A stretch of DNA of 64,000 nucleotides from Chloroflexota bacterium (GCA_037444365.1 JBBIMO010000002.1:7871-71870), one strand, 5' to 3'; shown: positions 28,771-57,558, counted from the first letter of the stretch. The notes: a model not told the origin generated them from the sequence alone. Program-made: numbers and translations.

Positions 28771-30015
28771 TTACCTTTTCTCCAGAACCTTGTTCACCGC
28801 CCACGATATCTTGGTTGAGTTCAACAGGTTCTCGATAAGGCTTAACTGCCTCCACATGTCGAACCACTCGTTAGAACGCCTCTCTATCAGCTGCTGCTTC
28901 ATTTCGTCGCCAACCTCACGCTCGCCTCTTTCCACAACCATAACCATCCAGTAGCCGCCCATGGTTGTGACCGATGTGTCCCTTTCCGGCTGACTGACCG
29001 TGTTCAGAGTGAGGTTAAAGGCGACCCGGTCGAAAGCCGTGCTGTTCATAGCGCCACGTCTCAAGCCAACAAGCTGACCGCCTTTGGCCTTACTCTCATG
29101 CTGTGAATAGTTTCCGGCCAGAGCGCTGAAGTTCCCACCGGCTAGCAATTGCGCTCGAATCTGATCTGCCTCGGCCTTGCTGCCCAGCAGCATGACCAGC
29201 GCATCTATCTTGTCATCCTGCTTGGCGGTGACGTTCATGAGCCAGTAGCCGATACTCTTGATTGCTGTTTCATCATAGATAGGCTGGCTTATGTTGCCGG
29301 GGGTAAGGTTGAAAGCAGCCTCGGCAACTAGCATATTCGGCATTAGCTCGGCAGGAAGCCATCCCAGGTCACCTTCGGTCGAAGGGTTGCAAGAGAAGTT
29401 TCTGACCAGAGCGGTGAAGTTGCCACCCGCTCTGACTCTGGCTATCACATCATTACCCACGTTCTGGCTTTCGACCAGCATTACCTGTATGCGGGCCTGT
29501 GGCATGGTAGCATTCACCCCGGGGCCGAAATATTGCTCACTCAACTTCTGTCCCAGCAGCATCGCCCTTACAATGTCCCTTAATGCCGGATCATAACCCA
29601 ATAGCTTCACCTTGGCGTCCAGTTCAGCGTCAGAAACTGAAATATTCAGGCTCTCTGCTCCTTGCCTCATCACTTCAGCCTCGATAATCTTGCTGGCGAC
29701 CATGCCGGCGAAATAATTGCCGTAGGCACGGAGAAATGTGGAGTTAACCTCTCCGGTGAAGGCATCGAGCGCCTTCACGAAGTATTCCATCGTGAAGTTG
29801 GCCCTGTTCACCCAGAGGACAATTTCGCGCAATGCTGTGTTCTTGGCTTCGTAGTCCTTGTGGTATCCGTAGCCTACCCAGCTCGAAATGCCGACCAGGA
29901 ACACAACGGCAGCGACTATCACTATTCGGCGTATCCTCATCTGGCGCTGCCACTTGGAGAGCTGGTGCTTGGTGGGGGTTCGCTCAGGTGTAGCTTTCTT
30001 CTGTTTCTTAGCCAA
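28771..30015 (-). CDS. Membrane-anchored parvulin-type peptidyl-prolyl isomerase (PrsA/SurA-like).
   Basis: It has an N-terminal TM helix and two segments with PpiC-like motifs (VRAGGNFTALV...GDLGWL and LLAGGNFSALAGNYS). Confidence 0.6.
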   Translation of the reverse strand: MAKKQKKATPERTPTKHQLSKWQRQMRIRRIVIVAAVVFLVGISSWVGYGYHKDYEAKNTALREIVLWVNRANFTMEYFVKALDAFTGEVNSTFLRAYGNYFAGMVASKIIEAEVMRQGAESLNISVSDAELDAKVKLLGYDPALRDIVRAMLLGQKLSEQYFGPGVNATMPQARIQVMLVESQNVGNDVIARVRAGGNFTALVRNFSCNPSTEGDLGWLPAELMPNMLVAEAAFNLTPGNISQPIYDETAIKSIGYWLMNVTAKQDDKIDALVMLLGSKAEADQIRAQLLAGGNFSALAGNYSQHESKAKGGQLVGLRRGAMNSTAFDRVAFNLTLNTVSQPERDTSVTTMGGYWMVMVVERGEREVGDEMKQQLIERRSNEWFDMWRQLSLIENLLNSTKISWAVNKVLEKR

Positions 30016-30092: not shown

Positions 30093-30166
30093 CGGGGTGT
30101 AGCGCAGCCTGGTAGCGCACCTGAATGGGGTTCAGGTGGTCGGTGGTTCAAATCCACTCACCCCGA
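30093..30166 (+). tRNA. tRNA-Pro (anticodon GGG).
   Basis: I folded it by hand. The acceptor is CGGGGTG/CACCCCG, the D-arm is GCGC/GCGC, the anticodon stem is CCTGA/TCAGG with loop ATGGGGT, and the T-arm is GGTGG-TTCAAAT-CCACT. There is no encoded CCA. Confidence 0.85.
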
Positions 30167-30496
30167 TTTTGTTTCCTGGGCGTTGCCGGGCGGATCGGAA
30201 TGGGGTCAACTGTGTTCTTCTCCGCGTCCCGTCGCGCCCGCATCACGGAAGGCAAGCAGAACATCCCCGGCTGGTGAAGCGCAGGGAGAAAAAGAGAGGC
30301 GACCCCATTTTCACCTACACTTAGTCCTGCCCTCTGGATCACCGGGTGTTGGACGGGGCGTATACGGGCAGGTGGCGATCGATTAGCATTTTCCGGTATC
30401 GGTTTCTCTCAACACTGATCCTGTATTTCAGCCCAATGGTCCTTCATGTGGTTTGACGAATACTGATACAATCTGATATCGCTGTAGGGAGATCAG

Positions 30497-32482
30497 ATGC
30501 TTACTGTCACCGGCGTTTCGAAGTCATATGGCGACCATGAGCTGTTCAGCGGAGTCAGCTTCACCGCTGGCATGGCGGACCGCATCGCTGTGATTGGACG
30601 AAATGGCACGGGCAAGACCACCCTTTTCGAGATCATAGCGGGCAACATCGTCCCGGATTCCGGAAGCGTGTCTCTGCGACGGGACACCGCTATCGGTTAT
30701 CTCCGCCAGGATGTCCAACCATCATCGCAGCAGAGCCTGCAGGAATATGTCTCTGCTTCGTCCGATGTTGTCAGGAACCTCGCACATAAGATTGGGCTGG
30801 TACAAGAAGACCTGGCAGAGGAAAGGGACGAGGAAACCGTGAATAGCCTGCTGAGAAAGCTGGGCGAGTTGCAGTCTCTGTATGAAGCGAAGGGGGGCTA
30901 TAGCTCCGAACACGAGGCAAAGATTGTCCTCTCCGGACTGGGGTTCACCCCATCAGATTTCGGGCGTCCGCTGTGCGAATTCAGCGGCGGCTGGCGAACA
31001 CGTGTTGAACTGGCCAGGCTCCTTTTCCTCAATCCAGATATCCTGCTGCTTGATGAACCTACAAACTATCTCGACCTGGAGACGCAGCGCTGGTTTGAAA
31101 CCTATCTGAAACGCTACCACGGTGCCATCCTGGTCACGTCGCACGACCGAGCCTTTCTGAACAATGTCGCAGGCAAAATCATAGCCATCGAGGATGACGG
31201 CGTCATCTTCTATCACGGCGATTATGATAGCTACATCCGTGCCCGCGAGAAGGACATCGAGACTCGCCGGGCAGCAGCCCGGCGGCAGGAGCTGGAGATC
31301 AGACGGCAGATGCGCTTCATTGAGCGCTTCCGGGCCAAGAACACCAAGGCTTCTCAGGTGCAGAGCCGGGTCAAGCAACTGGACAAGATTGAGCGGATCA
31401 TAGTTCCCCGGGCAACAAAGAGGATACATTTCAACTTCAGAGAGCCACCCCGGAGCGGTCGCGTCGTAGTTGAGCTCAAGCACATTGCCAAATCCTATGG
31501 TCAACATGTCGTATACCAGGATCTTAACCTGACGCTGGAGCGGCGAGATCGCGCCGCCATAGTGGGGATGAATGGGGCTGGCAAGACAACCCTTCTGCGC
31601 ATACTGGCTGGTGTTCTGCCTTTTGAAAGAGGCGAGCGTGTGCTCGGGCATAACGTGACCACCGCATACTTCGCCCAGTATTACATAGAGTCTCTCAACC
31701 CCTGCAACAGCATCATCGAGGAATTGCGGGGTGCAGCACCGGACGAGCCAGAACAACGCTTGCGCGGTCTGGCCGGGGCGTTCCTCTTCAGTGGCGACGA
31801 CGTGACCAAGAGGATATCGGCGCTCTCGGGCGGGGAAAGGACCCGAGTTGCCATTGCCAGGATGCTGGTAAAGCCGGCCAATTTCCTTCTTCTGGATGAA
31901 CCTACCAATCATCTGGACATTCCATCCCGCGAAATTCTGACCGATGCCCTGGATGCTTATGAAGGGACTCTGTGTTTCATCACTCACGACCGTACCCTCA
32001 TCCGCGAGCTGGCCAACAAAATCATTCAGGTGCGTGATGGCCAGGTGACGGTTTTCCCCGGTAGCTACGATGATTATCTGTGGCGGACCAGGTCACCGAA
32101 CGGTCAAGCGGAGATGACGGAAACCCGGCCTCGGATAAGCCAGCTGCATCAGCCATCAATGGCCGCGAGGAATCGTCAGCGCAAGGCACTGGAGGGCGAG
32201 CTGCGTAACGAGTACTACCGCGCCATATCGCCCGTAAGGGCACGCATCGCGGAAATAGAGCAGGAGATGCAGGCGAGCACACAGCGAATCGAGGAAATCG
32301 AAGTCATGATGTCCGACCCCTCCCATTACAAGGATTCCCGGAACGTGATTGCTGTGAATCGTGAATATGTGACGTTAAGGGAGAAGGTGGCGAGGTTGAC
32401 TGCCGAATGGGAGGGCTTGATGGGCGACGCTGAGCGAATAGACCTGGACTACCGCAGGAGACGAGAGGAACTGGCCGGATAG
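30497..32482 (+). CDS. ABC-F family ATPase (tandem ABC domains, no TM domain). Probably a translation factor of the EttA/Uup type.
   Basis: It has two Walker A motifs (GRNGTGKTT and GMNGAGKTT), two signature motifs, a linker and a C-terminal coiled coil. Confidence 0.85.
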   Translation: MLTVTGVSKSYGDHELFSGVSFTAGMADRIAVIGRNGTGKTTLFEIIAGNIVPDSGSVSLRRDTAIGYLRQDVQPSSQQSLQEYVSASSDVVRNLAHKIGLVQEDLAEERDEETVNSLLRKLGELQSLYEAKGGYSSEHEAKIVLSGLGFTPSDFGRPLCEFSGGWRTRVELARLLFLNPDILLLDEPTNYLDLETQRWFETYLKRYHGAILVTSHDRAFLNNVAGKIIAIEDDGVIFYHGDYDSYIRAREKDIETRRAAARRQELEIRRQMRFIERFRAKNTKASQVQSRVKQLDKIERIIVPRATKRIHFNFREPPRSGRVVVELKHIAKSYGQHVVYQDLNLTLERRDRAAIVGMNGAGKTTLLRILAGVLPFERGERVLGHNVTTAYFAQYYIESLNPCNSIIEELRGAAPDEPEQRLRGLAGAFLFSGDDVTKRISALSGGERTRVAIARMLVKPANFLLLDEPTNHLDIPSREILTDALDAYEGTLCFITHDRTLIRELANKIIQVRDGQVTVFPGSYDDYLWRTRSPNGQAEMTETRPRISQLHQPSMAARNRQRKALEGELRNEYYRAISPVRARIAEIEQEMQASTQRIEEIEVMMSDPSHYKDSRNVIAVNREYVTLREKVARLTAEWEGLMGDAERIDLDYRRRREELAG

Positions 32483-32773
32483 CGGCTGGGCGGGAGGAAT
32501 GAAAAGCCCTGCAAATCAATCGGCTACCGCAAGCTTGAGCACCTTCCGAAGTGTTATCCCGGGAGGCAGAGACAGAGTGATGCAACAATCCTACACATGG
32601 TGACCCCTGAGCTTTGAGGGACGTCTGAGACGCGGCACCGGTGTGCTGCCTGTCTTTCTCCAGTGGAGTAGATTGAAAGGGAGTCTGGCGGAATCCGCAG
32701 CCCTGTGTTGCCTATGTGGTCAGTCAGGGGATGGGCTCAGTGGGGGAGCAATTCGCAGATCTTTTGCCTGTCT

Positions 32774-34027
32774 CTATTCTATGATTACTCCGCTCTTGAC
32801 CACTTTCGCAACCAGGTTGCCGCCGAACCAGTAGGGCAGCTGTTGATGATTCGGGATGTCGAGAATGATGACGTCGGCCTTCTTCCCGACCTCGATGCTG
32901 CCCACCTTGTCACCTCTGTCCAGCGCATAAGCAGCATTGATGGTAGCAGCATTGATGGCTTCGGCAGGCGTCATCTTCAGGTGGCGACAGGCCAGAGCGA
33001 TTATCATCTGCATCGAAAGCGTGGGACAGCTTCCGGGGTTGAAGTCGGTAGCCAGAGCGATGGGAACTCCGGCTTCAATGAGCTTTCTGGCCGGCGCATA
33101 CCTGTCGGTCATCAGGTGAAAAGAAACACCGGGCAGGAGAACTCCAATGGTCTTCTTCTCGGCCATGAGCGCCATGCCTCTTTCGGAAATGTAGTCCAGG
33201 TGATCGATTGAGGTAGCTCCCAGTTCTGCGCCCAGCTCCGCACCACCTATGTCATTGAATTCCCCGGCGTGCAGCTTCAGCTTCAAGCCCTGTTTCTTTG
33301 CCCGCTCCAGGATTGTCCTGGCCTCTGACGGCGAAAACGCTCCCACTTCCACAAAAACGTCGCAGTACTCCGCCAAGCCTTCAGTCTTAACCCGTTCCAG
33401 CATGCCCAGCACGAGCTGAATGTAGTCCGCCTTCCTTTCCCTGTATTCTTTGGGAAAGGCGTGAGCGCCCAGAAAGGTGGAGACAATGTCCACCGGCTGG
33501 GATTTCTTCAGCCTGGCGATAATCCTGAGCAGGGCGAGTTCTGACTCCATTGACAGACCATAACCCGTCTTTATCTCTGCGGTGGTCGTGCCGAAGGCGA
33601 GCATCTTGTCGAGGAAAGCCTCAGCGCGCTTCAGCAGCGCCTGGGGAGCAGCCAGAGCCTCTCTTGTTCTTCTGACGGTGCTGAAAATGCCTCCGTTTCC
33701 CTGCATAATGTCCAGATACGACCTGCCCGCTGTCTTCTGGATGAACTCGTCTTCTCTGGAACCGCCAAAAACCACATGTGTATGGCAGTCCACAAACCCC
33801 GGCAGGACGATTCTGTCTGTGGCATCAATTACCGTTGCTGCCCGCCTGACAGTGGCCAGGACTTCATCCGTCTCCCCGACGGCGATAATTTCCTTGCCGT
33901 CTATAGCCAGCGCTCCGTTCGTGATGATGCCCAGGTCCTGCATGCCTGCCTTCGTCTTTGGGCCGCCCCGGGCATCTCGAGCCGTGACCAGTTCAGCAGC
34001 GTTTTTGATCAAGAGGTCAGCTATCAC
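32774..34027 (-). CDS. hutI: Imidazolonepropionase.
   Basis: It has the amidohydrolase motifs PGFVDCHTH...HAGE and the HutI N-terminus. It overlaps hutU by 4 bp. Confidence 0.9.
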
Positions 34028-35715
34028 TTTGGGATGTTAACCCCCTTGTGTTTGGCTGTCCTGAGGGCTATTTCATAGCCGGCATCCGCGTATCTGGCAA
34101 CGCCGATTCCGGGATCTACTGTCAGCACCCTTTCCAGTCTTTTTTCTTTCTCTTTTGTGCCGTCAGCCACAATGACCATTCCGGCATGCAGGGCATAACC
34201 TATGCCCACTCCGCCTCCATCATGGAAGGAGACCCAGGAAGCTCCATTGATGGCATTCAAAGCGAAGTTGAGGAGCGGCCAGTCGGCAATGGCATCAGAG
34301 CCGTCCATTATGCCCTCGGTTTCGCGATTAGGAGAAGCCACTGAGCCCGTATCCAGATGGTCTCTGCCGATAACAACGGGGGCGCTGACTTTCCCCCGCG
34401 CCACCAGGCGATTTATCCTCTTCCCAAACTCGGCCCGGTCGCCATACCCCAGCCAGCAGATCCTGGCTGGCAGTCCAGTGAACGGAACCTTGTCTTGAGC
34501 CTGGCGAATCCACTTGTGAAGACGCCTATCTTCGGGAAAGGCTGTCAGGACAGCTTCATCCAGAGTCAGGATATCTTTGGGGTCGCCGGATAAGGCTACC
34601 CATCGTGAGGGCCCCTTGCCTTCGCAAAACAAAGGTCTGATGTAAGCCAGCAGGAACCCGGGGTAGAGAAAGTTTCCCTCTGCATCTCTTACTTTGAGCC
34701 CGCCGACCTCTGCCTGCTGCCGCAGATTGTTGCCGTAGTCAAAGCAGATTGCGCCCCGCCTTTGCATCGCCAGAATTGCCTCCACGTGCTTAACGATTGA
34801 TTCATAGGCTCTGCGCTTGTAGGCTGCGGGGCTAGTGCGGCGCAATTCTTCCATTGCGCTCAGTTCGCCTACGGGCACGTAGCTCCAGATATCATGGGCC
34901 GGTGTTTGGTCCGTAACGATGTCAGGGGTCACTCCCATTCTGACGAGCTGCGGATGAATCTCGGCAGCATTGCCCACCAGCCCCACGGAAAGCGGCAGTC
35001 TCTTTCGCTTCGATTCCTCGATCCAAGCCAGGGCTTCCTTAAGGTCGGCCGTCATCCGGTCGCAGTATCCTTCTGCAATCTTCCTTCTGATCCTTTCAGG
35101 TCTGACCTCTACATCGAGGATGACCGCCTCATTCATGGTGGCAGCCATAGGTTGAGCACCGGACATTCCGCCCATTCCGGCGGTAAGAACAAACTTCCCC
35201 ACCAGAGAATCCTTGCCGAACTCCTTTCTGGCCAGGGCGGCCAGGGTTTCATAGGTTCCCTGCAGAATTCCCTGGGTTCCAATGTAGATCCAGGAGCCTG
35301 CGGTCATTTGACCATACATCGTCAGCCCCATTTCGTCGTAGCGATCGAAGTTCTCCTGAGTGGCCCATCTGGGAACGATGTTGGAATTGGCAATCACAAC
35401 CCGGGGTGCTTCCTTGTGAGTCGGGGCGATATAGACCGGCTTGCCCGATTGAACGCAAAGAGTCTCCTCGTCGGTGAGGCTCTTCAGAGCACTCACAATT
35501 CTATGATACTCCCGCCAATTCCGGGCGGCACGTCCCTGACCGCCATAGATAATGAGTTGTTGCCAGTCCAGGGCAACCCGGGGATCCAGATTGTTGCTCA
35601 ACATGCGCAGGGCTGCCTCTGCGTCCCAGTTCTGGCATTGCAGTCTTCCGCCGGTCTGCGCCTTGATTGCTCTCTTGGGTCTTAACTCTGCGTATATTGG
35701 CCTTGGCATTTCCAC
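34024..35715 (-). CDS. hutU: Urocanate hydratase.
   Basis: It is about 560 aa with a [10 protein letters not shown]...NAD-binding core typical of urocanase. Confidence 0.9.
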
Positions 35716-35755
35716 CTCCCTACGATGTCAGGCTGTCTTGCTTGTACAATACTCG

Positions 35756-36277
35756 TCAACGGAGACGAGCTTCAACTTCATTTACTATAGTCTCGGCCAG
35801 CGAGTCGGGGCGGGAAAATTCCTCCGCCTCTTTCAATACAGCTTGCTTGAAATCTTCATCCCTGATAGAAACCAGATTGACTTCCACGTTTAGCAGAGCT
35901 CCCTTTACGGCTGATTCAGCCATCTTGGCTGCTACGCCGATATCAGTGATGACTCTGGGATTACAGGTCTCCAGCAAAGCCGCAGCTAGCTTGAGAACGG
36001 CGTAGCTATGTCGTGCCGTTTGCAGGGGAACCTGTGTGGCCTCTCTTAAATCACGGGCGGCGAAAGCTTTGGCGTCCTTGTCAATCAGGTCTGTCAATTT
36101 ACTCATCAATGTTCGGGCCTGTCCGGAGACGTCTTTGTTTCCGGAGAACTCGGCTGCCATGCACACGAGTCCGGCCGACAATGCTCCGGAAAGGGCGGCC
36201 ACAGAGCCTCCGCCGGGCGTCGGTTTTCTGGCTGCCAACTCCTCCAGGAATTCCTCGATGGTCAATTCTTGTAGCAT
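35756..36277 (-). CDS. Formimidoyltetrahydrofolate cyclodeaminase (FTCD C-terminal domain-like protein).
   Basis: It has 'KPTPGGGSVAALSGALSAGLVCMAA', the cyclodeaminase/cyclohydrolase family signature. I chose the start at the Met with a GAGGGAG RBS. Confidence 0.75.
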   Translation of the reverse strand: MLQELTIEEFLEELAARKPTPGGGSVAALSGALSAGLVCMAAEFSGNKDVSGQARTLMSKLTDLIDKDAKAFAARDLREATQVPLQTARHSYAVLKLAAALLETCNPRVITDIGVAAKMAESAVKGALLNVEVNLVSIRDEDFKQAVLKEAEEFSRPDSLAETIVNEVEARLR

Positions 36278-36320
36278 ACCTATATCTCCCTCATTGACTA
36301 TCCTGTCAGAATTGAGCCCG

Positions 36321-37325
36321 TTACCGGGCACCAATCAGATACTCGATGATCTTAGCCCGTGGATTGAACTCCTGAGGCGAATCAAGCTTCAGATTCCTCA
36401 CTGCCGCTTCAATGAGTTTCTTCTCCGACCTTGCTGCTGGCTGGTAGAATCTGCCTGTCTGCAACATTGCCTCCTTGGGAATCAACCCCACAATCTCGCT
36501 GCGGAGAATCCTTGCACCTCCCAGCTCACCGAGCTGTTTTATCTTCTCAAAGACGAGGTGCAGGGGAGCAACCCTGTAGTCTGTAAGGTTCATTGAGACC
36601 TCAACGACCCCCGGCTCTCCAGGTGAAATACCGACTGCCTTAACTGATTTGAAAATCCCGGGTATCATGATTTTCCCGCCATCATTTGCAGTTGACAGGC
36701 AGCCCGACTCGCGAATAATCCGGGCAATCCTGTGACCAAGCTCCTTATCAGTGGTGCCCAGGTAAACGTTATAGGCGATGAGAAACTCTCTGGCGCCGAT
36801 AACGGTGGCTCCGCTCTTCTTGTTGAAACTGGCTGGACCGTAGTCCGGCTTCCAGCGGGGGTCTCTCAGTTTTGCTTCCAGGCCCTCATACTCGCCAGAC
36901 CTGATACTGGCCAGGTCTCTTCTTTCTGGAGCTCTGGCTGCCTCCCCGTACAGAAAGACAGGGATCCGCAGCTTCTCTCCGACTTCGCAGGCAAGCTCGT
37001 TTGCCAGAGCGACGCAGTCTGCCATGGTGACATTCTGCACAGGGACAAAAGGACAGACGTCACAGGCTCCCAGTCTTGGGTGCTGCCCTTGATGTCTGGC
37101 CATGTCAATGACTTCTATTGCCCTGGCAATGGCCTTGTAGCCTGCTCTCTTGATTGGCTCCGGTCCTCCCACGAAGGTCAACACTGTACGATTGTGATGA
37201 GCATCAGGGGCCACATCCAGCAGCTTGACACCGCGAACCCTCTCAACCTCAGCAGCGATCTGCGCAATCTTAGTGGTGTCTCTGCCTTCGCTGAAGTTAG
37301 GCACGCACTCAATTATCTTTCTCAT
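36321..37325 (-). CDS. Glutamate formimidoyltransferase (FTCD N-terminal domain homolog).
   Basis: It begins MRKIIECVPNFSEGRD...NRTVLTFVG, which matches the formiminotransferase domain. Its start overlaps the hutH stop. Confidence 0.8.
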   Translation of the reverse strand: MRKIIECVPNFSEGRDTTKIAQIAAEVERVRGVKLLDVAPDAHHNRTVLTFVGGPEPIKRAGYKAIARAIEVIDMARHQGQHPRLGACDVCPFVPVQNVTMADCVALANELACEVGEKLRIPVFLYGEAARAPERRDLASIRSGEYEGLEAKLRDPRWKPDYGPASFNKKSGATVIGAREFLIAYNVYLGTTDKELGHRIARIIRESGCLSTANDGGKIMIPGIFKSVKAVGISPGEPGVVEVSMNLTDYRVAPLHLVFEKIKQLGELGGARILRSEIVGLIPKEAMLQTGRFYQPAARSEKKLIEAAVRNLKLDSPQEFNPRAKIIEYLIGAR

Positions 37326-38799
37326 AACATCCCGCCTCCTCTGCCAATCTACCACTGTGGACAAGTCCGTAGAGCTCCTCGATGTCTTCAGCCAGGACTC
37401 TGCTTTTCTCAAAATGAGTAACGCGACTTCTCACGATCTCATGAATCTTCGCCAGTGTTGACTTCTTGGGTAAGTGTTCGCGGAAGTCCAGAGCCTGAGC
37501 AGCGCACAGAATCTCGATGGCTATGACGTACTCCGCGTTCTTGCAGATCTCCCGCGCTTTGCTGACAGCCCAGGCACCCATACTGACGAAGTCTTCTTGT
37601 CCGGCTGAGACGGGAATGGAGTCAACAGAAGCGGGGTGAGCCAAGGTCTTGTTTTCGGAAACCAGAGCAGCGGCGGTATATTGAGTGATCATCAAGCCAG
37701 TGTTCAATCCCTCGTTCCTGGCTAGAAACAGAGGGAGACCGTTGCCACCGCGACCGACCAACCTATCTATTCTCCTTTCCGAAATGCCCGAGATACTGCA
37801 GAGGGCAATCGACAGACTATCGGCTGCCTGAGCCAGAATCTGACCATGGAAATTGCCGCTGCCCTGGCAGATTTCGGCTTTCGCTCCTGTGGTTGAAATC
37901 CAGGGATTGCCGCCAAAGGAGTTGATCTCGGTATCTACAACAGCTCTGGCGCGTGCAAGAATGTCCCGAAAAGCGCCGTGGACCTGAGGAATGCATCTCA
38001 GGGAATAAGCATCCTGCAATGAACAAGCCGGCTTCTTGCCCCCGCTTGTCTTGGGAAGAAGTTGGTTCAAGTAGCGGGCAGTTGTGATTTGCCCCGTATG
38101 AGGTCTCAGTTCTTGAATTGCAGGCACAAATGATTTGCTGCTGCATCCCAGAGCTTCAATGGTCATGGCGGCAGCGATATCGGCTGTTCGGATCAAGTTG
38201 TCGGACTGGAAAACCAGGAAGGCCAGACAACTTGTCATGAAGCTCGTGCCGTTAAGCAGTGCGATGGCTTCCCCGATCTGCAGCTTCGCTGGCTCCAGTC
38301 CTGCGGCAGGCAAAACTCGCTGCGGATCCTTGCCAATCAAGGCCAGGGCAATGTGAGCCTGAGGGACCAGATCGCCGCTGGCACCCAGAGACCCCTTCGC
38401 CGGGACAACCGGAATGACGTTTCTGTTGAACATCTCGACCAGGAGCTCCAGCGTCGGCAATCTTATGCCGGAATATCCTTTCCTCAGATTCAGAATCATG
38501 TGAAGCATGATGCCTTTGACTATCTCCGTCTCCAGTGGGGGGCCTATCCCACAGGCGTGGCTCATGATGAGATTATCCTGGAATTCCTCCGTTCTGCCCT
38601 TGGGAATGCGCCTGTTCAGGAGGGCACCGACGCCGGTGTTTATTGCATAGTAGGATTTGCGAGGGCTAGACCTCAGAATAGCCTCAAGAGCCATTCTGGA
38701 GCGCCTGACTCTTTCCTTGTCTCTTCTTGCTAACTCGATTGTCCTCTGGGCGCGGCACAGATCGACGAATTCGGAATAGTCCAGCTTGTCTTTTGTCAT
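37309..38799 (-). CDS. hutH: Histidine ammonia-lyase.
   Basis: It has GSLGASGDLVPQAH, the Ala-Ser-Gly MIO-forming triad. Confidence 0.9.
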   Translation of the reverse strand: MTKDKLDYSEFVDLCRAQRTIELARRDKERVRRSRMALEAILRSSPRKSYYAINTGVGALLNRRIPKGRTEEFQDNLIMSHACGIGPPLETEIVKGIMLHMILNLRKGYSGIRLPTLELLVEMFNRNVIPVVPAKGSLGASGDLVPQAHIALALIGKDPQRVLPAAGLEPAKLQIGEAIALLNGTSFMTSCLAFLVFQSDNLIRTADIAAAMTIEALGCSSKSFVPAIQELRPHTGQITTARYLNQLLPKTSGGKKPACSLQDAYSLRCIPQVHGAFRDILARARAVVDTEINSFGGNPWISTTGAKAEICQGSGNFHGQILAQAADSLSIALCSISGISERRIDRLVGRGGNGLPLFLARNEGLNTGLMITQYTAAALVSENKTLAHPASVDSIPVSAGQEDFVSMGAWAVSKAREICKNAEYVIAIEILCAAQALDFREHLPKKSTLAKIHEIVRSRVTHFEKSRVLAEDIEELYGLVHSGRLAEEAGCYEKDN

Positions 38800-39375
38800 T
38801 TATCTCCTCACCAGTAGGATTGCGGCTTCGACAGCAGGAATCGTGTGCCACCATACTGGCTCGCGCGATCTTGTTGCAATCGTATCACGGGGCTGGTTCT
38901 TCCTGGCCGCACCAATGGCGTCCCTCTCCAAAATGATAGCGCTGAACGGCACTGCAGGATTCCTGAGAATCGAGTACTGTGTTCCTATCAGCAGACTTCA
39001 CAGTGACATCTCAAGGTGGCTCCTCTACCCCGCGTTCCTCTGGAACGGCATTACGCGGAGGAGCGCACCACCATCGGTCGCCGCACCTCCAGAACATTAT
39101 AGTCTCTGGCATCTTGGGTTTCAACACGATTCCGTAGCTCCAGATTCGCAGAAGCAGAGCCATGACAGGAACAGCATTGGATAGCCAGCCTTCCTGCGCA
39201 GTAATCCACTTGTTATCCAGGGGCACTTTTCGTCGGGGTGGCATTGCTGACTTGCTGCACCGGGCGTGTCGGTGTAGGCGGCAGCTGACTTGTTTGGCTT
39301 CTATCCAGCGGGGTCTTCCCGAAGAGGGAGACGAACGGTTCTCGCCTTTTGTCTAGCTTGCCCTGGAATCATGAG

Positions 39376-39403
39376 ACTGGTGGTTCAAATCCTCTCTGGC
39401 TTT
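39376..39403 (+). other. Degenerate tRNA-like T-arm fragment within a 750-bp non-coding gap.
   Basis: GGTGGTTCAAATCC is identical to the T-arm of the two tRNA-Pro genes in this window. The 3' half of the stem is mutated (CCTCT) and I could find no matching acceptor or D/anticodon arms. Confidence 0.35.
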
Positions 39404-39547
39404 TTCCCGATACAAGACTTGCTGGCTTCAGACGGCGTGGGCTATCACCTACGACTGTAGAGTCAATTGTGTTCCTTGACTCCATTCGCGCGAGGCTAAA
39501 GCAGAACTCTCTATTTGCCTCTGAAAACCTTCGTCCTTCATGCGGCA

Positions 39548-40438
39548 CTAGGCAGCAAGTCCTGCGGCTTTCAAGATGGCGGGAACCACTTCCTCCCTGC
39601 CTATAGCCATGACATGGACTCCGTGGCACATTGAGTCTTTTTTTATGGTGGCAATCATCCTGCCAGCGATCTCTATACCCTTATTGATTGCCTCGCCTTT
39701 GGGGGCAGCCGCCAATTCGTCGATCAGGTTTTGGGGCACAATGACGCCCGGGACATTGTCCGTCATATACTTGGCCATCTTGGCTGACACAAGCAAAATG
39801 ATGCCAGCCAGTATCTTCACCGGGAATTGACGGGCATATTCCATAAACCTGGCGAATCTGTCCAGGTCATAGATGGCTTGAGTCTGAAAGAATTCGGCAC
39901 CGGCTTCAACCTTCTTTTCAAACTTCATTAACTGAGGCTCAATTGGGTTTGCTTCAGGTGTGACTATGGCTCCGGCGCAGAACTCCACGGTCCCATTGAG
40001 CGCATTCCCTCCCAGGTCTTTGCCCGATTCCATCTGCCGGATTGCCTTCAGTAACTGTGTTGAGTCCAGGTCGAAAACACCCTTAGCCCCCTTGTGGTCG
40101 CCGACTACAACAGCATCTCCGGTTAGACAGAGAACATTTCTGATGCCTCTGGTATATGCGAAGAGAAGCTCGGCTTGAAGGGCAAGGCGATTACGGTCCC
40201 GGCAAGTTATCTGTAAGATGGGCTCTCCACCCCGCTCCTTGATGTCCAGGCAGCCACCAATGGAGGGAAAGCGCATGACGGAACTCTGGTGGTCAGTAAC
40301 ATTCAGCGCGTCGACCTTGTCCTTGAGAAGGTCAATATGGTGGAGCATCTTCTCAATGTTTGTCCCCTTGGGAGGACCGATTTCGCTGGTTATCACAAAT
40401 TTGCCAGATTTGAGGACTTCCCTAAAACTCGGTGCCAT
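39548..40438 (-). CDS. metF: Methylenetetrahydrofolate reductase, acetogen/anaerobe MetF type (no C-terminal regulatory domain).
   Basis: It is about 296 aa with a TIM-barrel MTHFR sequence (VITSEIGPPKG...ITCRDRNR...LCLTGD). Confidence 0.85.
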   Translation of the reverse strand: MAPSFREVLKSGKFVITSEIGPPKGTNIEKMLHHIDLLKDKVDALNVTDHQSSVMRFPSIGGCLDIKERGGEPILQITCRDRNRLALQAELLFAYTRGIRNVLCLTGDAVVVGDHKGAKGVFDLDSTQLLKAIRQMESGKDLGGNALNGTVEFCAGAIVTPEANPIEPQLMKFEKKVEAGAEFFQTQAIYDLDRFARFMEYARQFPVKILAGIILLVSAKMAKYMTDNVPGVIVPQNLIDELAAAPKGEAINKGIEIAGRMIATIKKDSMCHGVHVMAIGREEVVPAILKAAGLAA

Positions 40439-40448
40439 AGCTCCTCCT

Positions 40449-41093
40449 TCATGTGATCCTGATCGTTCGCGGCCTGGGTGCCACGCTGTAATCTCTTGGA
40501 GAATGATGCTTGCGCATCAACTCAAGTCGTCCCTGTTCTTTTAGGCGCTGATATATGACAGCCCAGGCACAGTCCTTTGCCTTGTCCACCTCGCACTTGC
40601 CGTTATTGGTGCCTCCACACGGACCGTTCAGCAAACCCTTGTGACATGCCGTCAGAGGACAAATGCCCGCAGTCTCTCCCAGGATGCATTGACCACACTG
40701 GGCACAGACTTCCTGGAAACAGCCGGGGCCGACCTCGACACCCATGAAGAGAGTATCCAATGCGGGAATGGCTGGCTTGTCAACATAGGTGCCCAGCTTA
40801 TGCACGCCTAGAGCACAGGCCATGACCAGGATACAGGCGGCATTCTGGATGGCTCCATTATTCTCCTTAATAGCTACTGCGGTCATCTCATCGCAGGCGG
40901 TGGGGATGACTATCCAGCCGGTGACCAGCTTGCCCAGCTCTTGTAGGCGCTTCCCCATCTCCAGGACCTCCTCTTTCCCGCCAGTCCTGGTCATTGTGGA
41001 GCATGTGCCGCAACCGGCAACATACACCCGGTCAAACCCCTCTAGCTGTTGCTTGATTTCCTCAAAAGGCTTCTGTTTGGTGATAGATTTCAT
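40449..41093 (-). CDS. metV: MetV, the Cys-rich zinc-ribbon partner subunit of MetF-type methylene-THF reductase.
   Basis: It is about 214 aa with AGCGTCST...CAQCGQC...CPLTACHKGLLNGPCGG cysteine clusters. It lies immediately upstream of metF, as in acetogen metVF operons. Confidence 0.75.
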   Translation of the reverse strand: MKSITKQKPFEEIKQQLEGFDRVYVAGCGTCSTMTRTGGKEEVLEMGKRLQELGKLVTGWIVIPTACDEMTAVAIKENNGAIQNAACILVMACALGVHKLGTYVDKPAIPALDTLFMGVEVGPGCFQEVCAQCGQCILGETAGICPLTACHKGLLNGPCGGTNNGKCEVDKAKDCAWAVIYQRLKEQGRLELMRKHHSPRDYSVAPRPRTIRIT

Positions 41094-41232
41094 GTGTAAC
41101 CTCCGTATGAACTAAATCCCAAGCTCCAAATCCTAGATAAACCCAAATATCCAAATTGGAAGTCCGAGACGTGGCATCTTGGTCATTGGGATTCTGCACT
41201 TTGATATTGTCTGGCATTTAGTGCTTGGTGCT

Positions 41233-44200
41233 TCATTTCTCTAGGTCGCACCTTAAGCATCGCTTAGCCTCCTGTCTCGCCTTCTCTTCAGAGAAGCTCA
41301 GCTCTATCTCCTTGAAGCTACCTTTCCTCTCCTGGAGAGGGAGATGAGGTGTTTCTGGCCTGAGTTGTGGTTCCCAGGTTTCCTCTGCCGAGGCTGCTTC
41401 CTCGCCAACGTTCCTCGCAGTGACAGGGGACATAACGCTGGGCTTCAGGTCATACATCTCGACCCGTGAGGTATCTCCACGGAGATACTTGTCAATGGCA
41501 ATGGCTCCTCTCCGGCCAGCCGCAATAGCTTCTATAACCATACCCGGCCCGGAGACGAAGTCTCCCCCGGCAAAGATCCCGGGAACATTGGTGACCAATC
41601 TGTTTTCATCAACTGCCAGCCTTTCCCACCGGGTGCGCTCAAGAGCACTACCCGGGGGCAGGAAGGAAAGGTCCGGAGCCTGTCCCACAGCTGCAATGAC
41701 AGTTTCCGCCGGAGCAAGGAACTCCGAGCCCGAAATTGGGATTGGCCTACGGCGCCCGCCGGCGTCGGCCTCACCCAGCTTCATGCGGACACACTGTAAG
41801 CCGGTCACTTTCCAGTCGTTGCTTACTATGCGGGTGGGACTAACAAGAAAACTGACCTGAACGCCTTCAGCCAGAGTCTCATCATACTCCACCTCAGTTA
41901 CCGGCATCTCCTCACGTGACCGGCGGTAGAAGATGCTGACCTCATCAGCACCAAGGCGAAGAGCGGTGCGAGCCGAGTCCAGGGCTACGTTGCCACCCCC
42001 AATAACAGCTACCTTGCGCCCAACCTTGACAGGCTTGCCAATCTTCACATCTCTCAGAAACCTCAGGCCATAGTAGAAGCCTTCGACGTCCTCCAGTTCC
42101 CCGGGTATACCAATGTTCTGGCTTCTTTGTGCCCCGGCGGCAATGAACACAGCTTGAAAACCACTGTTTCTGATATCGTCCACGGTAAAATTCACATTGA
42201 TTGGTGTGTTGTATCTTATCTCCACGCCGCGCTTAGCGACATGATCTATCTCCTTATCGATGACATCCCGCGGCAAGCGGAAGTCGGGTATAGCTACGGA
42301 AAGCATGCCACCACCTATGGGGAGGGCTTCGAAGACAGTGACAGGATAGCCCATTTGAGCCAGAAAGTACGCGCAGGACAGCCCGGTAGGTCCCGCTCCC
42401 ACCACTGCAACTTTCTGGTTGTGAGTCCGTGGAAATGGTTCTGGTTCAGGTGATTCCCTAACGTGGTCAAAATACCAGTCGGCGGCAAATCGCTTAAGCG
42501 CCCTGATTGCTACGGATTCATCGAGTTCCCCGCGGCGACATCTCCCCTCGCAGGGGTGATGACAGATGCGGCCGCAAATGGCAGGGAAGGGATTACGCTC
42601 CCTGATCGTATCGATGGCCTCCAGGTACTCACCTGCTGAAATGTGAGCGATGTACTTGGGGACGTTTATTCCCACCGGGCAGGTATGCTGGCACGGTGAT
42701 ATCATGAGGGCATCGCACACAGCAGCCGGGCATTTCTTCTCCTTGATATGAGTCTCATATTCATCTCTGAAATAGGCAAGGGTGGTGAGCACGGGGTTGG
42801 GGCAAGTCTGTCCCAGACCACAGAGTGAGCACTCCTTAACCGTCTTGGCTATGGTAAGCAGGGTATCCATGTCCTGTTCACGCCCTTTGCCCTGAGTGAT
42901 TCTGGTCAGTATTTCCAGCATTTGTTTGGTTCCCAGGCGGCAAGGGACACACTTTCCACAGGACTCCGCTTGAGTGAAGCTCAAAAAATACTTGGCCACG
43001 TCCACCATACAGGTTGTCTCGTCCAGCACGACCATGCCACCGGAACCCATGATGGAGCCCAATTGAGCCAGCGTTTCATATTCCACCGGCGAGTCGAGAA
43101 ATCGGGCAGGGATGCAACCACCTGAAGGCCCACCCGTCTGCACCGCCTTGAATCGCTTGCCTCGTGGAATGCCGCCACCGATATCAAATATGATGGCAGA
43201 TAGGGAAGTGCCCATAGGCACCTCCACCAATCCGCTGTTGGCAATCTTCCCGGTGAGGGCGAACACCGCCGTCCCCTTGCTCTTTTCGGTGCCAATGCTG
43301 CTAAACCAATCAGCCCCGCGGTCAATGATTATGGGGATGGAAGCCAGGCTCTTTACATTGTTAATGGTGGTAGGCTGTCCATTCAGGCCTGATTGGGCGG
43401 GAAATGGGGGGCGGGGACGAGGCATGCCCCGTCGGCTCTCAATAGAAGCCATCAAGGCTGTTTCCTCGCCACAAACAAAGGCCCCCGCACCTTCCTTGAC
43501 GTGAACCACAAAATCGAAGCCTGAGCCAAGGATATTCTCTCCCAGGAAAGACATCTGTCGGGCTTGCTCTAAGGCAGTGCGAACCCGTCTTACTGCTAAG
43601 GGATACTCGGCGCGGACATAGATGTAGCCCTCGTTGGCACCTATGGCATATCCAGCAATTGTCAGTCCTTCAACAACAGCGTGGGGATCAGCTTCCAATA
43701 TGGAGCGGTCCATGAAAGCCCCCGGGTCGCCTTCATCCGCATTACAGATAACATATTTCCTTTCCCCATGAGCCCTGCGGCAAAACTCCCACTTGAGGGC
43801 AGTGGGAAAACCGGCACCACCCCGCCCGCGGAGACCAGACTTCCTCACCTCCTCAATGACCTGCTCGGGAGTCATCAACAGAGTCTTTTTCAGTGCCCGA
43901 TAACCTCCACGAGCAATATAATGCGAGATTTTCTCCGGGTTGATTTGTCCGCAGTTACGCAGGATGACACGTTGCTGTTTCCTGTAGAAGTTTATCTCTG
44001 AATAACGCGGTACGGCTTCGCCAGTTACAGGGTCATGGTAGAAAAGGCGCTCCACGGGTTTGCCATCTCGAAGATGAGAGGTGGCGATTTGCTGAGCATC
44101 CTCGGGCTGCACATGGGTATAGAAAACGCCTTCGGGTTCAACCACTACATTGGGACCCTGCTCACAGAAACCATGGCAACCGGTGAAATCCACCTCGGCA

Positions 44201-44325
44201 TGGCTAATCCTATGTTGTCTTATTGCTTCCCTGATCGCCTCATAGACGGCATCGGAGCCGGTGGAAACACATCCCGTTCCCTGACAGACAAAGACAGTAT
44301 GATGGTCTTTCATTCTATCTTTCAC
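41233..44325 (-). CDS. Fusion protein with three parts: an N-terminal thioredoxin-like [2Fe-2S] domain, a NuoF/HydB-like NAD(P)H-FMN-[4Fe-4S] domain, and a C-terminal GltD/NfnB-like NAD(P)H:FAD oxidoreductase domain.
   Basis: It has GLRGRGGAGFPTALKWEF (the NuoF FMN site). It has a C-terminal Fe-S pair CPVGINVPKYI...CGRICHHPCEGRC followed by VAVVGAGPTGLSCAYFLAQ (FAD) and VAVIGGGNVALDSA (NAD(P)) Rossmann motifs. Confidence 0.8.
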   Translation of the reverse strand: MKDRMKDHHTVFVCQGTGCVSTGSDAVYEAIREAIRQHRISHAEVDFTGCHGFCEQGPNVVVEPEGVFYTHVQPEDAQQIATSHLRDGKPVERLFYHDPVTGEAVPRYSEINFYRKQQRVILRNCGQINPEKISHYIARGGYRALKKTLLMTPEQVIEEVRKSGLRGRGGAGFPTALKWEFCRRAHGERKYVICNADEGDPGAFMDRSILEADPHAVVEGLTIAGYAIGANEGYIYVRAEYPLAVRRVRTALEQARQMSFLGENILGSGFDFVVHVKEGAGAFVCGEETALMASIESRRGMPRPRPPFPAQSGLNGQPTTINNVKSLASIPIIIDRGADWFSSIGTEKSKGTAVFALTGKIANSGLVEVPMGTSLSAIIFDIGGGIPRGKRFKAVQTGGPSGGCIPARFLDSPVEYETLAQLGSIMGSGGMVVLDETTCMVDVAKYFLSFTQAESCGKCVPCRLGTKQMLEILTRITQGKGREQDMDTLLTIAKTVKECSLCGLGQTCPNPVLTTLAYFRDEYETHIKEKKCPAAVCDALMISPCQHTCPVGINVPKYIAHISAGEYLEAIDTIRERNPFPAICGRICHHPCEGRCRRGELDESVAIRALKRFAADWYFDHVRESPEPEPFPRTHNQKVAVVGAGPTGLSCAYFLAQMGYPVTVFEALPIGGGMLSVAIPDFRLPRDVIDKEIDHVAKRGVEIRYNTPINVNFTVDDIRNSGFQAVFIAAGAQRSQNIGIPGELEDVEGFYYGLRFLRDVKIGKPVKVGRKVAVIGGGNVALDSARTALRLGADEVSIFYRRSREEMPVTEVEYDETLAEGVQVSFLVSPTRIVSNDWKVTGLQCVRMKLGEADAGGRRRPIPISGSEFLAPAETVIAAVGQAPDLSFLPPGSALERTRWERLAVDENRLVTNVPGIFAGGDFVSGPGMVIEAIAAGRRGAIAIDKYLRGDTSRVEMYDLKPSVMSPVTARNVGEEAASAEETWEPQLRPETPHLPLQERKGSFKEIELSFSEEKARQEAKRCLRCDLEK

Positions 44326-44803
44326 CCTCCCGCTTCCTGAATAGTTGCTCCACCTTCTTAGGGTTCATGTGACCATGGACGTGGTCACTGACGACTATAT
44401 TGGGGGCTAGGGCACAAACGCCGATGCAGGCCACAGTTTCCAATGTGTATTCCCAATCAGGGCTGGTCTCCCCCTCTTCTATGCCCAGGTGTTGCTTAAC
44501 CAATTTCAATATCGTCTTTCCCCCCCGCACATGGCAGGCAGTTCCCCGACACACTCTGACAACCTTTCTGCCGCGTGGCTGCGTATAAAGCTGAGTGTAA
44601 AAGCTAATCACTCCCTGCACCTGGCTGGGGAAAAGCCCCAGGCTTTGGGCGATGAGTGGTATAGACTGAGGCGGTATGTAGCCGAACTTGCCCTGGATCT
44701 CCTGCAGCAGCGGTATGAGAGCCCACTTTCGCTGACTATGCTCAGCAACAAGGGCTCTTATTCGTTCCATGTCGATCTCTCTAGCTATTTCTGCTCCATC
44801 CAT
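44315..44803 (-). CDS. NuoE-like [2Fe-2S] thioredoxin-fold subunit (24-kDa subunit family).
   Basis: It has CRGTACHVRG...ACIGVCALAPNIVV (the NuoE Cys4 pattern). I chose the start at the Met with an AAGGAG RBS (the track ORF starts at a GTG at 44884). Confidence 0.8.
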   Translation of the reverse strand: MDGAEIAREIDMERIRALVAEHSQRKWALIPLLQEIQGKFGYIPPQSIPLIAQSLGLFPSQVQGVISFYTQLYTQPRGRKVVRVCRGTACHVRGGKTILKLVKQHLGIEEGETSPDWEYTLETVACIGVCALAPNIVVSDHVHGHMNPKKVEQLFRKREGER

Positions 44804-44847
44804 CTCCGCTGACTCCTTCGCTTCATTGTGAACAAAGCTCATCTCCT

Positions 44848-47565: not shown

Positions 47566-47598
47566 AACTCAGCAGATTGGGGTGGGCTTTCTGAGAGA

Positions 47599-48426: not shown

Positions 48427-48645
48427 CTTTCACCCCCTTGCCAACTGCTCGTCCTGGCAATCCGTTTGGCCTGCTGTCAACAGTATAGTGCTCGATTTGC
48501 TGAAGGACTAGAGGCATTCACCCCAGAAATCATGGAAATGTTACTGTAACTTTCCTGGGGTTGATTACCCATTTATGAGGATCGGGCTTGCCATCGGTCT
48601 GGTGGGGGGAGCAAACCGTGACAGCGACGCCGCCAGGCGATAATA

Positions 48646-50903: not shown

Positions 50904-50995
<92 letters not shown>

Positions 50996-50996
50996 G

Positions 50997-51084
50997 CGGA
51001 GAGGGTGGGATTCGAACCCACGCTCCGATATAATCGGAGACCGCTTTTCGAGAGCGGCACCATAATCCTCTCGGTCACCTCTCC
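50997..51084 (-). tRNA. tRNA-Ser (anticodon CGA), class II. No CCA is encoded.
   Basis: The reverse complement has acceptor GGAGAGG/CCTCTCC, anticodon stem CCGCT/AGCGG with loop CTCGAAA, and the same T-arm. A single nucleotide separates it from the other tRNA-Ser. Confidence 0.8.
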
Positions 51085-53280: not shown

Positions 53281-53281
53281 A

Positions 53282-57230: not shown

Positions 57231-57558
57231 TACTCAAGAAGCCGCATAACCAAAACAAATGACCACTCGCGACTTCGCTTCGACTAATTAGCCAGGTCTT
57301 GGTTGAGGCCTTTTCCCAATCTATCTTGGCACCCGAGATGCCCGCCCGGAGGTCGCTGACTTCGGCGAGCCGGTCACGTCAGCTCGTCTTCTCACTTCAT
57401 CACACAGTCTGGCAAAAAGCTGCGTCCAATTCGAGGGCAAGTCATTACGCCAAAGGGCAGTATTAGGCACCCGAAACGAAGAGAATTCGTGGTACCAGCT
57501 GGCCGATCTATGGCATATTGAAGAGGAAGGAAGAGCTGTATCAGGACGATTCAGAAGC

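Follow-up and report, generated by a model that had tools for sequence, protein, structure and literature searches.

A five-gene formiminotransferase-type hut operon behind a metVF cluster at a variable tRNA-Pro(GGG) site in an uncultured Dehalococcoidia lineage

Genes and features of the hut locus

The minus strand of the window, by which we mean the whole 64-kb stretch of DNA analyzed here, carries five consecutive genes of histidine utilization between 38799 and 32774: hutH, ftcD, a gene of the FTCD_C family, hutU, and hutI (Table 1). The distances between them are −17 nt (the ftcD start lying over the hutH stop), 43 nt, 46 nt, and −4 nt (hutI lying over the hutU stop), which is the spacing expected for one operon. 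An earlier note on this DNA had proposed these gene identities, and both Pfam and NCBIfam bear them out, with NCBIfam E-values of 1e-40 to 1e-249 for HutH, FtcD, HutU, and HutI that are far beyond chance. HutH additionally scores 528.7 bits with TIGR01225 in the NCBIfam search, slightly below the cut-off of 539, and its translation contains a GASGD segment and a LIMSHACG motif with a Ser-His pair; we take the former to be the MIO-forming segment (Ala-Ser-Gly) and the two together to be signatures of histidine ammonia-lyase (HAL). The sequence upstream of the hutH ATG start is GGTGAGGAG. Thiourocanate hydratase models of NCBIfam score far under their cut-offs on HutU, and a thiourocanate- or ergothioneine-type pathway was rejected on this basis.

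Table 1. Features of the hut locus and its flanks, in window positions.
Feature	Position	Strand	Evidence and remarks
tRNA-Pro(GGG), intact	30093-30166	plus	ARAGORN and Rfam; one segment boundary
abcF, ABC-F family ATPase	30497-32482	plus	Pfam ABC_tran (twice), ABC_tran_Xtn, ABC_tran_CTD; other cargo, convergent with hutI
hutI, imidazolonepropionase, 417 aa	32774-34027	minus	TIGR01224 460 bits (cut-off 298); Amidohydro_1 103 bits
hutU, urocanate hydratase, 561 aa from ATG	34024-35709	minus	Urocanase_N/Urocanase/Urocanase_C 184/259/298 bits; TIGR01228 828 bits (cut-off 375)
FTCD_C family gene, 173 aa	35756-36277	minus	Pfam FTCD_C (PF04961) 137 bits in two stretches (cut-off 24.5)
ftcD, glutamate formimidoyltransferase, 334 aa	36321-37325	minus	Pfam FTCD_N 245 and FTCD 125 bits; NCBIfam equivalog TIGR02024 355 bits (cut-off 221)
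hutH, histidine ammonia-lyase, 496 aa	37309-38799	minus	Pfam Lyase_aromatic 514 bits; NCBIfam NF006871 541 bits (cut-off 524)
hutH 5' leader, about 290 nt	38800-39089	minus	Conserved 5' and 3' blocks, variable middle (alignments A1, A3)
Sigma-70-like promoter, TTGAAA-17 nt-TATAAT	39096-39124	minus	11/12 consensus matches
tRNA-Pro(GGG) 3' half, decayed copy	39362-39400	plus	24/32 matches to tRNA positions 36-67; other segment boundary, beside metF
metF	39548-40438	minus	MTHFR 142 bits; neighbor outside the hut unit
metV	40449-41093	minus	PF12225 119 bits; neighbor outside the hut unit

The starts of two of the genes deserve mention. The longest open reading frame (ORF) of ftcD extends up to 37412, the Pfam match begins only at residue 33, and the gene as called in Logan has 334 aa, the call being identical in L001, L160, and L161. 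The hutU ORF reaches a GTG at 35715, while the 561-aa gene call on L001 begins at the ATG two codons further on. As the earlier note had claimed, the counterparts of the two halves of FTCD are encoded separately: ftcD and the FTCD_C gene are distinct ORFs with a stop codon between them, they are two gene calls in relatives too, and the Pfam check that the note had recommended places FTCD_N in the first product and FTCD_C in the second.

Pfam scans of the other ORFs in the 64-kb window revealed no arginase-family HutG, FGase, or HutF, so that the proposed absence of hutG holds across this stretch, and equally no fhs, folD, or CODH/ACS. The position given for metVF, upstream of hutH and on the same strand, is likewise correct, with metF lying 749 nt away. 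An independent Logan contig (L001) spans window positions 33270-39888 with 3 mismatches, and therefore the junction between metF and hutH is no assembly artefact.

The metVF neighborhood and the tRNA-Pro(GGG) site

Upstream of the hut genes, metV and metF follow fdhA, nuoE, and a gene for a 1030-aa 2Fe2S-NuoF-GltD fusion, and this fdhA-nuoE-nuoF/gltD-metV-metF cluster is conserved. The earlier note had seen in this proximity a sign that histidine serves as a source of C1 units and reductant, or that its C1 unit is coupled to the methyl branch, and there are several observations with which such a functional or transcriptional coupling of the hut operon to FDH/NuoEF/MetVF would agree. The two modules act on one folate pool, metF and hutH share a strand, the minus strand shows no intrinsic terminator from metF to the hut promoter, which makes read-through from metF into the hut genes possible, and a comparable proposal exists for Clostridium ljungdahlii, in which a folate-dependent hut route into the Wood-Ljungdahl methyl branch was already put forward (PMC12090709).

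This seeming tie to the Wood-Ljungdahl methyl branch nevertheless disappears on comparison with relatives. No hut gene follows metF in any of 80 metagenome loci with a MetF 86-95% identical to that of the window; the sequence beyond metF amounts to 2.5 kb or more in 52 of these loci and to 9 kb or more in 25. Among 76 loci of GTDB species that contain ftcD, none has metF or metV within 10 kb of it. The five-gene order is retained at 80-92% amino-acid identity in a dozen relatives' loci (L003-L006, L060, L074, L078, and L160-L164), and not one of the close hut loci (L004, L006, L074, and L160-L164) adjoins metF or metV; instead, they occupy at least four other contexts (L004, L160, L161/L162, and L163/L164). 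The conserved upstream cluster, for its part, ends at metF in all relatives, which leaves the adjacency unique to this strain. The hut genes, moreover, would probably be transcribed from a conserved predicted promoter of their own, located about 300 nt upstream of hutH within the spacer that separates it from metF. Its hexamers, TTGAAA and TATAAT, are invariant in ten out of ten aligned Dehalococcoidia hut loci, the surroundings being about 80% identical, and this promoter and the upstream region travel with the operon.

The operon is also contained in a variable insertion associated with a tRNA gene. A 9.2-kb segment comprising abcF and the hut genes is flanked by an intact tRNA-Pro(GGG) gene on one side and, on the other, by a decayed copy of its 3' half, a remnant that includes GGTGGTTCAAATCC. 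In relatives, tRNA-Pro(GGG) sits between metF and a PPIase gene; in two of them (L107 and L087) it lies within about 100 nt after metF and is followed by PPIase and PALP genes, which in the window are found beyond the hut segment, and window positions 39401-39547 align with the tRNA-to-metF spacer of these same two loci. In a further relative (L136), the tRNA half is duplicated exactly over 43 nt at the position of the remnant, and in three others (L129, L131, and L153) the site is occupied by inserts of 2.4-8.5 kb whose cargo is unrelated. The second cargo gene of the window, abcF, is absent from all the metF loci and hut loci examined.

This arrangement shares with tRNA-targeted genomic islands the intact tRNA at one end, the tRNA's 3' half directly repeated at the opposite end, and a cargo that varies between strains. 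It differs from them in that no integrase or mobility gene was found and in that the repeat is decayed (24/32): by Pfam, abcF and the hut genes make up the whole gene content of the inserted segment, and the ORFs scanned from the inserts of L129, L131, and L153 contain no integrase domain. A mechanism of insertion would thus have to be deduced from the duplicated tRNA half alone. The hut operon is found behind fdhA-nuoE-nuoF/gltD-metVF here because the variable tRNA-Pro(GGG) site holds cargo that differs between strains, and its adjacency to metVF has the appearance of an insertion at a tRNA gene that is particular to this strain, with no functional link. We consider it very probable that the locus is a self-contained five-gene formiminotransferase-type hut operon with its own promoter, brought behind the metVF cluster by chance through this site, and quite unlikely that the two are coupled, be it by delivery of methenyl-THF to the methyl branch or by the use of histidine as a dedicated source of C1 units and reductant. 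The coupling suggested earlier consequently finds no support. A metabolic connection via the common cellular folate pool is trivially possible, but gene order gives no evidence of it, and the case advises caution against reading function from the gene order of one genome.

As a side observation, the upstream flank of one relative's hut locus (L004) resembles genes situated 7-8 kb downstream of metF in two metF loci (L109 and L140), and the hut operon of some relatives may share this broad region while being farther from metF.

The leader of hutH

Between the promoter and hutH lies a leader that moves with the hut operon between genomic contexts. RNAalifold predicts a 5' hairpin supported by 4 compensatory pairs and a 3' helix in which UUCUU pairs with the Shine-Dalgarno sequence GGAGG. 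These features, namely the invariant promoter, the hairpin with its compensatory changes, and a 3' helix able to sequester the Shine-Dalgarno sequence, are the points behind a reading of the leader as a new regulatory RNA responsive to a ligand such as histidine, urocanate, formiminoglutamate, or folate. The sequence comparison, on the other hand, led us to reject a conserved leader RNA under selection: identity upstream of hutH is 76-82%, which is not above the 84% of hutH third codon positions, and leader conservation is therefore by itself no evidence of function. In this upstream region, the promoter hexamers alone stand out in conservation. No Rfam family matches the leader at gathering thresholds, and the E-value mode returned one chance-level match (E = 1.2). 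A covariance model of the leader (R1) matched solely upstream of hutH within this clade; it gave no further copies in the rest of the window, in metF loci, or in distant hut loci, and there is thus no sign of a leader regulon. That either the leader is such an RNA or the insertion has led, by read-through, to joint expression of the genes for C1 reduction and for histidine breakdown strikes us as very unlikely.

Two coding candidates within the leader were also rejected. One, considered as a leader ORF or small regulator, is an ORF of 83-88 aa situated in a 180-nt leader insert of two relatives (L003 and L004); it has no Pfam match, is frame-disrupted in a third (L006), and is absent from the window. 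The other, a short peptide with a TTG start that follows the 5' hairpin, lacks conservation.

The predicted pathway and its relation to known Hut systems

Judged from family scores and gene order, the locus has every component of a formiminotransferase-type Hut pathway: HAL, HutU, HutI, and clustered FtcD and FTCD_C proteins. On the chemistry of the characterized families, HutH would deaminate histidine to urocanate, HutU would hydrate urocanate to 4-imidazolone-5-propionate, and HutI would open the ring to give N-formimino-L-glutamate. FtcD would then transfer the formimino group to tetrahydrofolate (THF), freeing glutamate, and the small FTCD_C protein would convert 5-formimino-THF to 5,10-methenyl-THF and ammonia, the methenyl-THF presumably entering the general cellular C1-folate pool. 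The delivery of the histidine C2 carbon to 5,10-methenyl-THF that the earlier note had put forward would thus follow from the gene identities, by way of 5-formimino-THF.

The step that calls for most discussion is the last one, for which the product of the FTCD_C gene is best read as a 5-formimino-THF cyclodeaminase of a short form, its reaction being suggested by context. The protein is about 33 residues shorter than its solved homologues owing to an internal gap. Its closest solved relative by raw score is the methenyl-THF cyclohydrolase 7vg4 (64 bits, compared with 51 each for rat FTCD and for TM1560, 1o5h), with which it shares the Pfam family; the FchA model NF045657 is its sole NCBIfam match, and NCBI names its relatives "cyclodeaminase/cyclohydrolase family protein". 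It might accordingly be an FchA-type methenyl-THF cyclohydrolase, with 5-formimino-THF deaminated non-enzymatically or by another enzyme. The score with this equivalog model, however, reaches 115 bits where the cut-off is 275, which places the protein outside FchA as the model defines it, and its context is that of histidine catabolism: in all close relatives the gene is located between ftcD and hutU within the hut operon, and across many phyla it comes immediately after ftcD in 38 of the 76 GTDB loci, hut genes being nearby in 34. JGI, too, names it formiminotetrahydrofolate cyclodeaminase. We thus give the cyclohydrolase assignment little chance and retain the cyclodeaminase.

The pathway reading is sound and already known, and public pipelines name the products of all five genes. 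The folate route had been presented as a departure from the usual one; it is in fact one of three standard Hut branches and has been described in several bacteria (PMC3223725, PMC12288474). Like these formiminotransferase-type systems, the window has hutH, hutU, and hutI, no hutG in the cluster, and transfer of the C1 unit to THF. Fusobacterium nucleatum, an example of this COG3643-type Hut route, also possesses a stand-alone transferase (FN1407) and a stand-alone cyclodeaminase (FN1405) (PMC12288474, PMC3223725), whereas the host here belongs to an uncultured Dehalococcoidia lineage, its cyclodeaminase is the 173-aa short form, the gene order is hutH-ftcD-cyclodeaminase-hutU-hutI, and the cluster contains neither fhs nor folD. 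Mammalian bifunctional FTCD (rat, PDB 1tt9/2pfd) has both catalytic domains (FTCD_N with FTCD, and FTCD_C) and catalyzes both consecutive reactions, but as one fused polypeptide rather than from two genes 43 nt apart; the cyclodeaminase of the window is about 34 residues shorter than its counterpart there across the aligned stretch. The closest parallel in metabolic setting is the cluster CLJU_c21460-21500 of C. ljungdahlii, likewise a formiminotransferase-type hut cluster, in an anaerobe with MetVF-type C1 metabolism, and the idea of passing the histidine C2 carbon to the methyl branch is common to both (PMC12090709); there, however, it is backed by co-expression data, whereas here it would depend on a gene order that is unconserved in relatives.

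It is hardly credible that ftcD serves mainly in folate housekeeping, where it would stand in for the cycloligase YgfA in removing 5-formyl-THF. In favor of this reading, formiminotransferases of COG3643 from prokaryotes can complement a ygfA mutant of E. coli, ygfA is generally missing from bacteria with this type of Hut pathway (PMC3223725), and Pfam scans of the 64-kb window found no 5-FTHF cycloligase domain. The gene, however, is embedded with overlapping or nearly abutting frames in a strictly conserved operon, with hutH on one side and hutU/hutI on the other, and the moonlighting role in the literature adds to the Hut role and does not replace it.

A literature search on hut genes in Dehalococcoidia returned nothing specific. 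Although no new biochemistry is implied by the operon, the predicted metabolism of a widespread uncultured lineage of sediment Dehalococcoidia gains the catabolism of histidine, derived from peptides, with a folate-bound C1 output. Metagenome protein clusters with this same operon number well above one hundred.

A formiminotransferase-type Hut operon

The Pfam and NCBIfam assignments of the five genes of the operon are unambiguous: by NCBIfam, hutH encodes a histidine ammonia-lyase (NF006871, 541 bits, cut-off 524), ftcD matches FtcD (TIGR02024, 355 bits, cut-off 221), hutU encodes a urocanate hydratase (TIGR01228, 828 bits, cut-off 375) and hutI an imidazolonepropionase (TIGR01224, 460 bits, cut-off 298), while by Pfam the remaining 173-aa gene carries FTCD_C (PF04961, 137 bits, cut-off 24.5). 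Successive genes from hutH to hutI are separated by −17, 43, 46, and −4 nt. Both formiminotransferase subdomains, FTCD_N and FTCD, lie within the single ftcD gene and Pfam places the cyclodeaminase domain in a separate one, so the earlier note described these genes, as the two halves of FTCD, correctly. Its report of a missing hutG also holds for the 64-kb window, whose other ORFs, scanned with Pfam, include no HutG, HutF, or formylglutamate amidohydrolase, nor any fhs, folD, or CODH/ACS. An independent Logan assembly (L001) reproduces window positions 33270-39888 with three mismatches, and the metF-hutH junction is therefore real.

Judged from the characterised families, HutH, HutU, and HutI would convert histidine to N-formimino-L-glutamate, FtcD would move the formimino group onto THF to give glutamate and 5-formimino-THF, and the FTCD_C protein would cyclise the latter to 5,10-methenyl-THF with release of ammonia. 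This pathway assignment, already made in the earlier note, is right, but the idea that it departs from the usual bacterial route does not stand, since of the three onward routes of formiminoglutamate the formiminotransferase route is known from "certain bacteria and animals" (PMC3223725), including Fusobacterium nucleatum, where transferase and cyclodeaminase are separate genes as in the window (PMC12288474). Entry of histidine-derived methenyl-THF into the Wood-Ljungdahl methyl branch has likewise been raised for Clostridium ljungdahlii (PMC12090709). What the window carries is a formiminotransferase-type Hut operon of the standard kind, in a host lineage new for it.

At least one of hutH, hutU, and hutI occurs within the fetched flank of 34 of 76 ftcD loci, and all three in 13. 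Among GTDB species representatives, the closest ftcD loci, at 82-84% identity, belong to Dehalococcoidia/Chloroflexota MAGs (e.g., RBG_13_51_36); HutH and the 173-aa protein have homologues with 78-90% identity in more than 100 90%-identity clusters from environmental metagenomes, several of which JGI already names "histidine ammonia-lyase" and "formiminotetrahydrofolate cyclodeaminase". In three relatives, hutI is followed by a MarR-family regulator gene (L161 16300-16980, L162 16177-16980, L163 16293-16883), a candidate hut regulator that is missing at this position in the window strain, where a convergent ABC-F gene is found instead.

Coordinates of the operon, its metF-side neighbours, and the tRNA-Pro(GGG) site in the window
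Feature	Position	Strand	Remark
hutH	37309-38799	minus	496 aa
ftcD	36321-37325	minus	334 aa
FTCD_C gene	35756-36277	minus	173 aa
hutU	34024-35709	minus	561 aa
hutI	32774-34027	minus	417 aa
promoter-like TTGAAA-17-TATAAT	39124..39096	minus	hexamers invariant in 10/10 aligned loci
metF	39548-40438	minus	upstream of hut operon
metV	40449-41093	minus	upstream of hut operon
spacer	39401-39547		homologous to relatives', directly downstream of metF
decayed tRNA-Pro(GGG) 3'-half copy	39362-39400		next to spacer; 24/32 positions match, including GGTGGTTCAAATCC
intact tRNA-Pro(GGG)	30093-30166		
PPIase gene	28771-30015		same as in L107/L087
PALP gene	27476-28537		same as in L107/L087

The last step: cyclodeaminase or cyclohydrolase

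The weakest step of the pathway is the last, for the FTCD_C protein could instead be a methenyl-THF cyclohydrolase. Its raw score against a solved enzyme of that kind (7vg4) is 64 bits, marginally above the 51 bits against both rat FTCD and TM1560, and the protein is some 33 residues shorter than solved homologues, owing to an internal gap that leaves 17 residues between residues 48 and 66 where these have about 50, which was counted against a cyclodeaminase. Given that the 173-aa length is constant in over 100 related clusters, this short form presumably functions. Scored with the FchA equivalog model, the protein reaches 115 bits where the cut-off is 275; all close relatives have its gene between ftcD and hutU, and across many phyla an FTCD_C gene lies immediately 3' of ftcD at 38 of 76 loci. 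Because of the failed cut-off and the conserved position beside ftcD, context favours a predicted cyclodeaminase activity and disfavours the cyclohydrolase.

Placement beside metVF and the tRNA-Pro(GGG) site

As the earlier note had stated, metVF lies upstream of hutH on the same strand; 5' of metV follow a 1030-aa 2Fe2S-NuoF-GltD fusion, nuoE, and a formate dehydrogenase alpha subunit. The coupling of histidine breakdown to a MetVF/NuoEF methyl branch that it drew from this adjacency is not supported by comparison with other loci. We compared 80 metagenome loci on the metF side (MetF 86-95% identity), of which 52 include 2.5 kb or more, and 25 include 9 kb or more, of sequence past metF, and 24 extend upstream to the histidine kinase, most others being short contigs. 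The order kinase, two response regulators, fdhA, nuoE, nuoF/gltD, metV, metF recurs in every locus long enough upstream, and hut genes occur in none of the 80, even at E 1e-5; conversely, neither metF nor metV occurs within 10 kb of ftcD at any of the 76 ftcD loci. In close relatives the five-gene hut order is retained in other contexts, among them those with divergent upstream genes (L004, L006), alcohol dehydrogenase, GNAT, and nitroreductase (L160), SAM synthetase and AdoHcy hydrolase (L161/L162), or a trypsin-like protease (L163/L164).

Comparison with relatives suggests how the two clusters came to be neighbours. In L107 and L087, about 100 nt downstream of metF comes tRNA-Pro(GGG), encoded on the other strand, and beyond it the PPIase and PALP genes; other relatives hold 2.4-8.5 kb of unrelated cargo between metF and the tRNA (e.g., a trehalose-related enzyme fusion, an ABC-2 transporter, a GLUG protein); in L136 the metF-proximal site holds 43 nt that copy the tRNA 3' half exactly, and the intact tRNA lies 3.7 kb off. 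In the window, this interval (30167-39361, 9.2 kb) consists of abcF, the hut operon, and its upstream region, and given the tRNA 3'-half copy, the PPIase and PALP genes beyond the intact tRNA, and the varying cargo of relatives, it is best read as strain-specific cargo at a tRNA-associated variable site. Neither this segment nor the scanned inserts of relatives yielded an integrase, and it is only from the repeat that a mechanism of insertion can be deduced. In L109 and L140, 7-8 kb downstream of metF, there are genes resembling those that flank hut in L004, and hut may in some relatives occupy the same broad interval, much further from metF.

The tRNA-Pro(GGG) (window 30093-30166, 39321-39400) serves as a recurrent insertion site in the lineage (L085, L088, L098, L109, L136, L143, L146, L148), at which strains differ in cargo and where no integrase was noted. 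Many relatives have a metF-side tRNA 3'-half copy, cut at the anticodon loop (...GAACCCCAT) and followed by a conserved hairpin-like element, GTAGCTAGTAGAAAAGGCAGAGGCCGCTTGCCTCCTTTC, which in other loci lies right at the metF stop, preceded by a similar CCCCATG. The TM1586-type nitroreductase and GNAT genes of the window (56346-59369) lie 18-20 kb from its hut operon, across the fdhA-metF cluster; their homologues in relative L160 (5915-7940) adjoin the operon, an indication that local rearrangements in its vicinity are frequent.

The metF cluster (39548-50575, minus; compared in L082-L158) includes a GAF histidine kinase, and its 905-aa FdhA joins a NuoG-like N-terminus to Mo-FDH. In its NuoE/NuoF/GltD/NuoG-like domain set the cluster is similar to the Stn transhydrogenase (PMC7483475), from which it differs in the arrangement of these domains and in their union with a true FDH domain and MetVF. 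It could be an electron-input module, not described before, that serves methylene-THF reductase or formate dehydrogenase. Elsewhere, the window holds two tandem tRNA-Ser genes (GGA, CGA; 50905-51084), a three-gene 2-oxoacid:ferredoxin oxidoreductase (gamma/delta fusion, alpha, beta; 52402-55380), GTP cyclohydrolase I of the folate/pterin branch beside a flavin reductase (26137-26703), and a spermidine synthase gene overlapping that of AdoMet decarboxylase by 13 nt (5916-5928).

The hutH upstream region

About 455 nt 5' of hutH (38800-39255, minus) move with the operon between contexts, as compared across L003-L006, L074, L078, and L160-L164. They include the promoter-like TTGAAA-17-TATAAT site (39124..39096), whose two hexamers do not vary among the ten loci aligned. 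At 76-82%, identity in this region does not exceed the 84% of third codon positions in hutH, and constraint is therefore not proven by conservation alone; between the window and L003-L006, L074, and L078, HutH is 88% identical in amino acids and first and second positions are 93% identical, and with third positions at 84% synonymous sites are far from saturated, which limits conservation arguments for non-coding elements in the clade. The stretch from metF to the promoter-like site showed nothing terminator-like, so read-through from metF may occur.

The central leader carries large indels, up to about 290 nt; the 5' and 3' blocks are always kept. RNAalifold predicts a conserved 5' hairpin with four compensatory pairs that would sequester an AGAGGAG motif, and a 3' helix in which UUCUU would pair with the hutH Shine-Dalgarno sequence. 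The leader has no Rfam match, and a covariance model of the 5' block matches hutH leaders of this clade only. In three relatives (L004 8163-8429, L003 282-533, L006 8193-8432), an extra 180 nt of leader holds an ORF of 83-88 aa (MQEINRDFFAKSYSEGEIVRKLKK...DIVDVARKN) for which Pfam gave no match. In L006 a 25-nt deletion alters this ORF, and the window retains a remnant, so it is possibly a decaying gene fragment.
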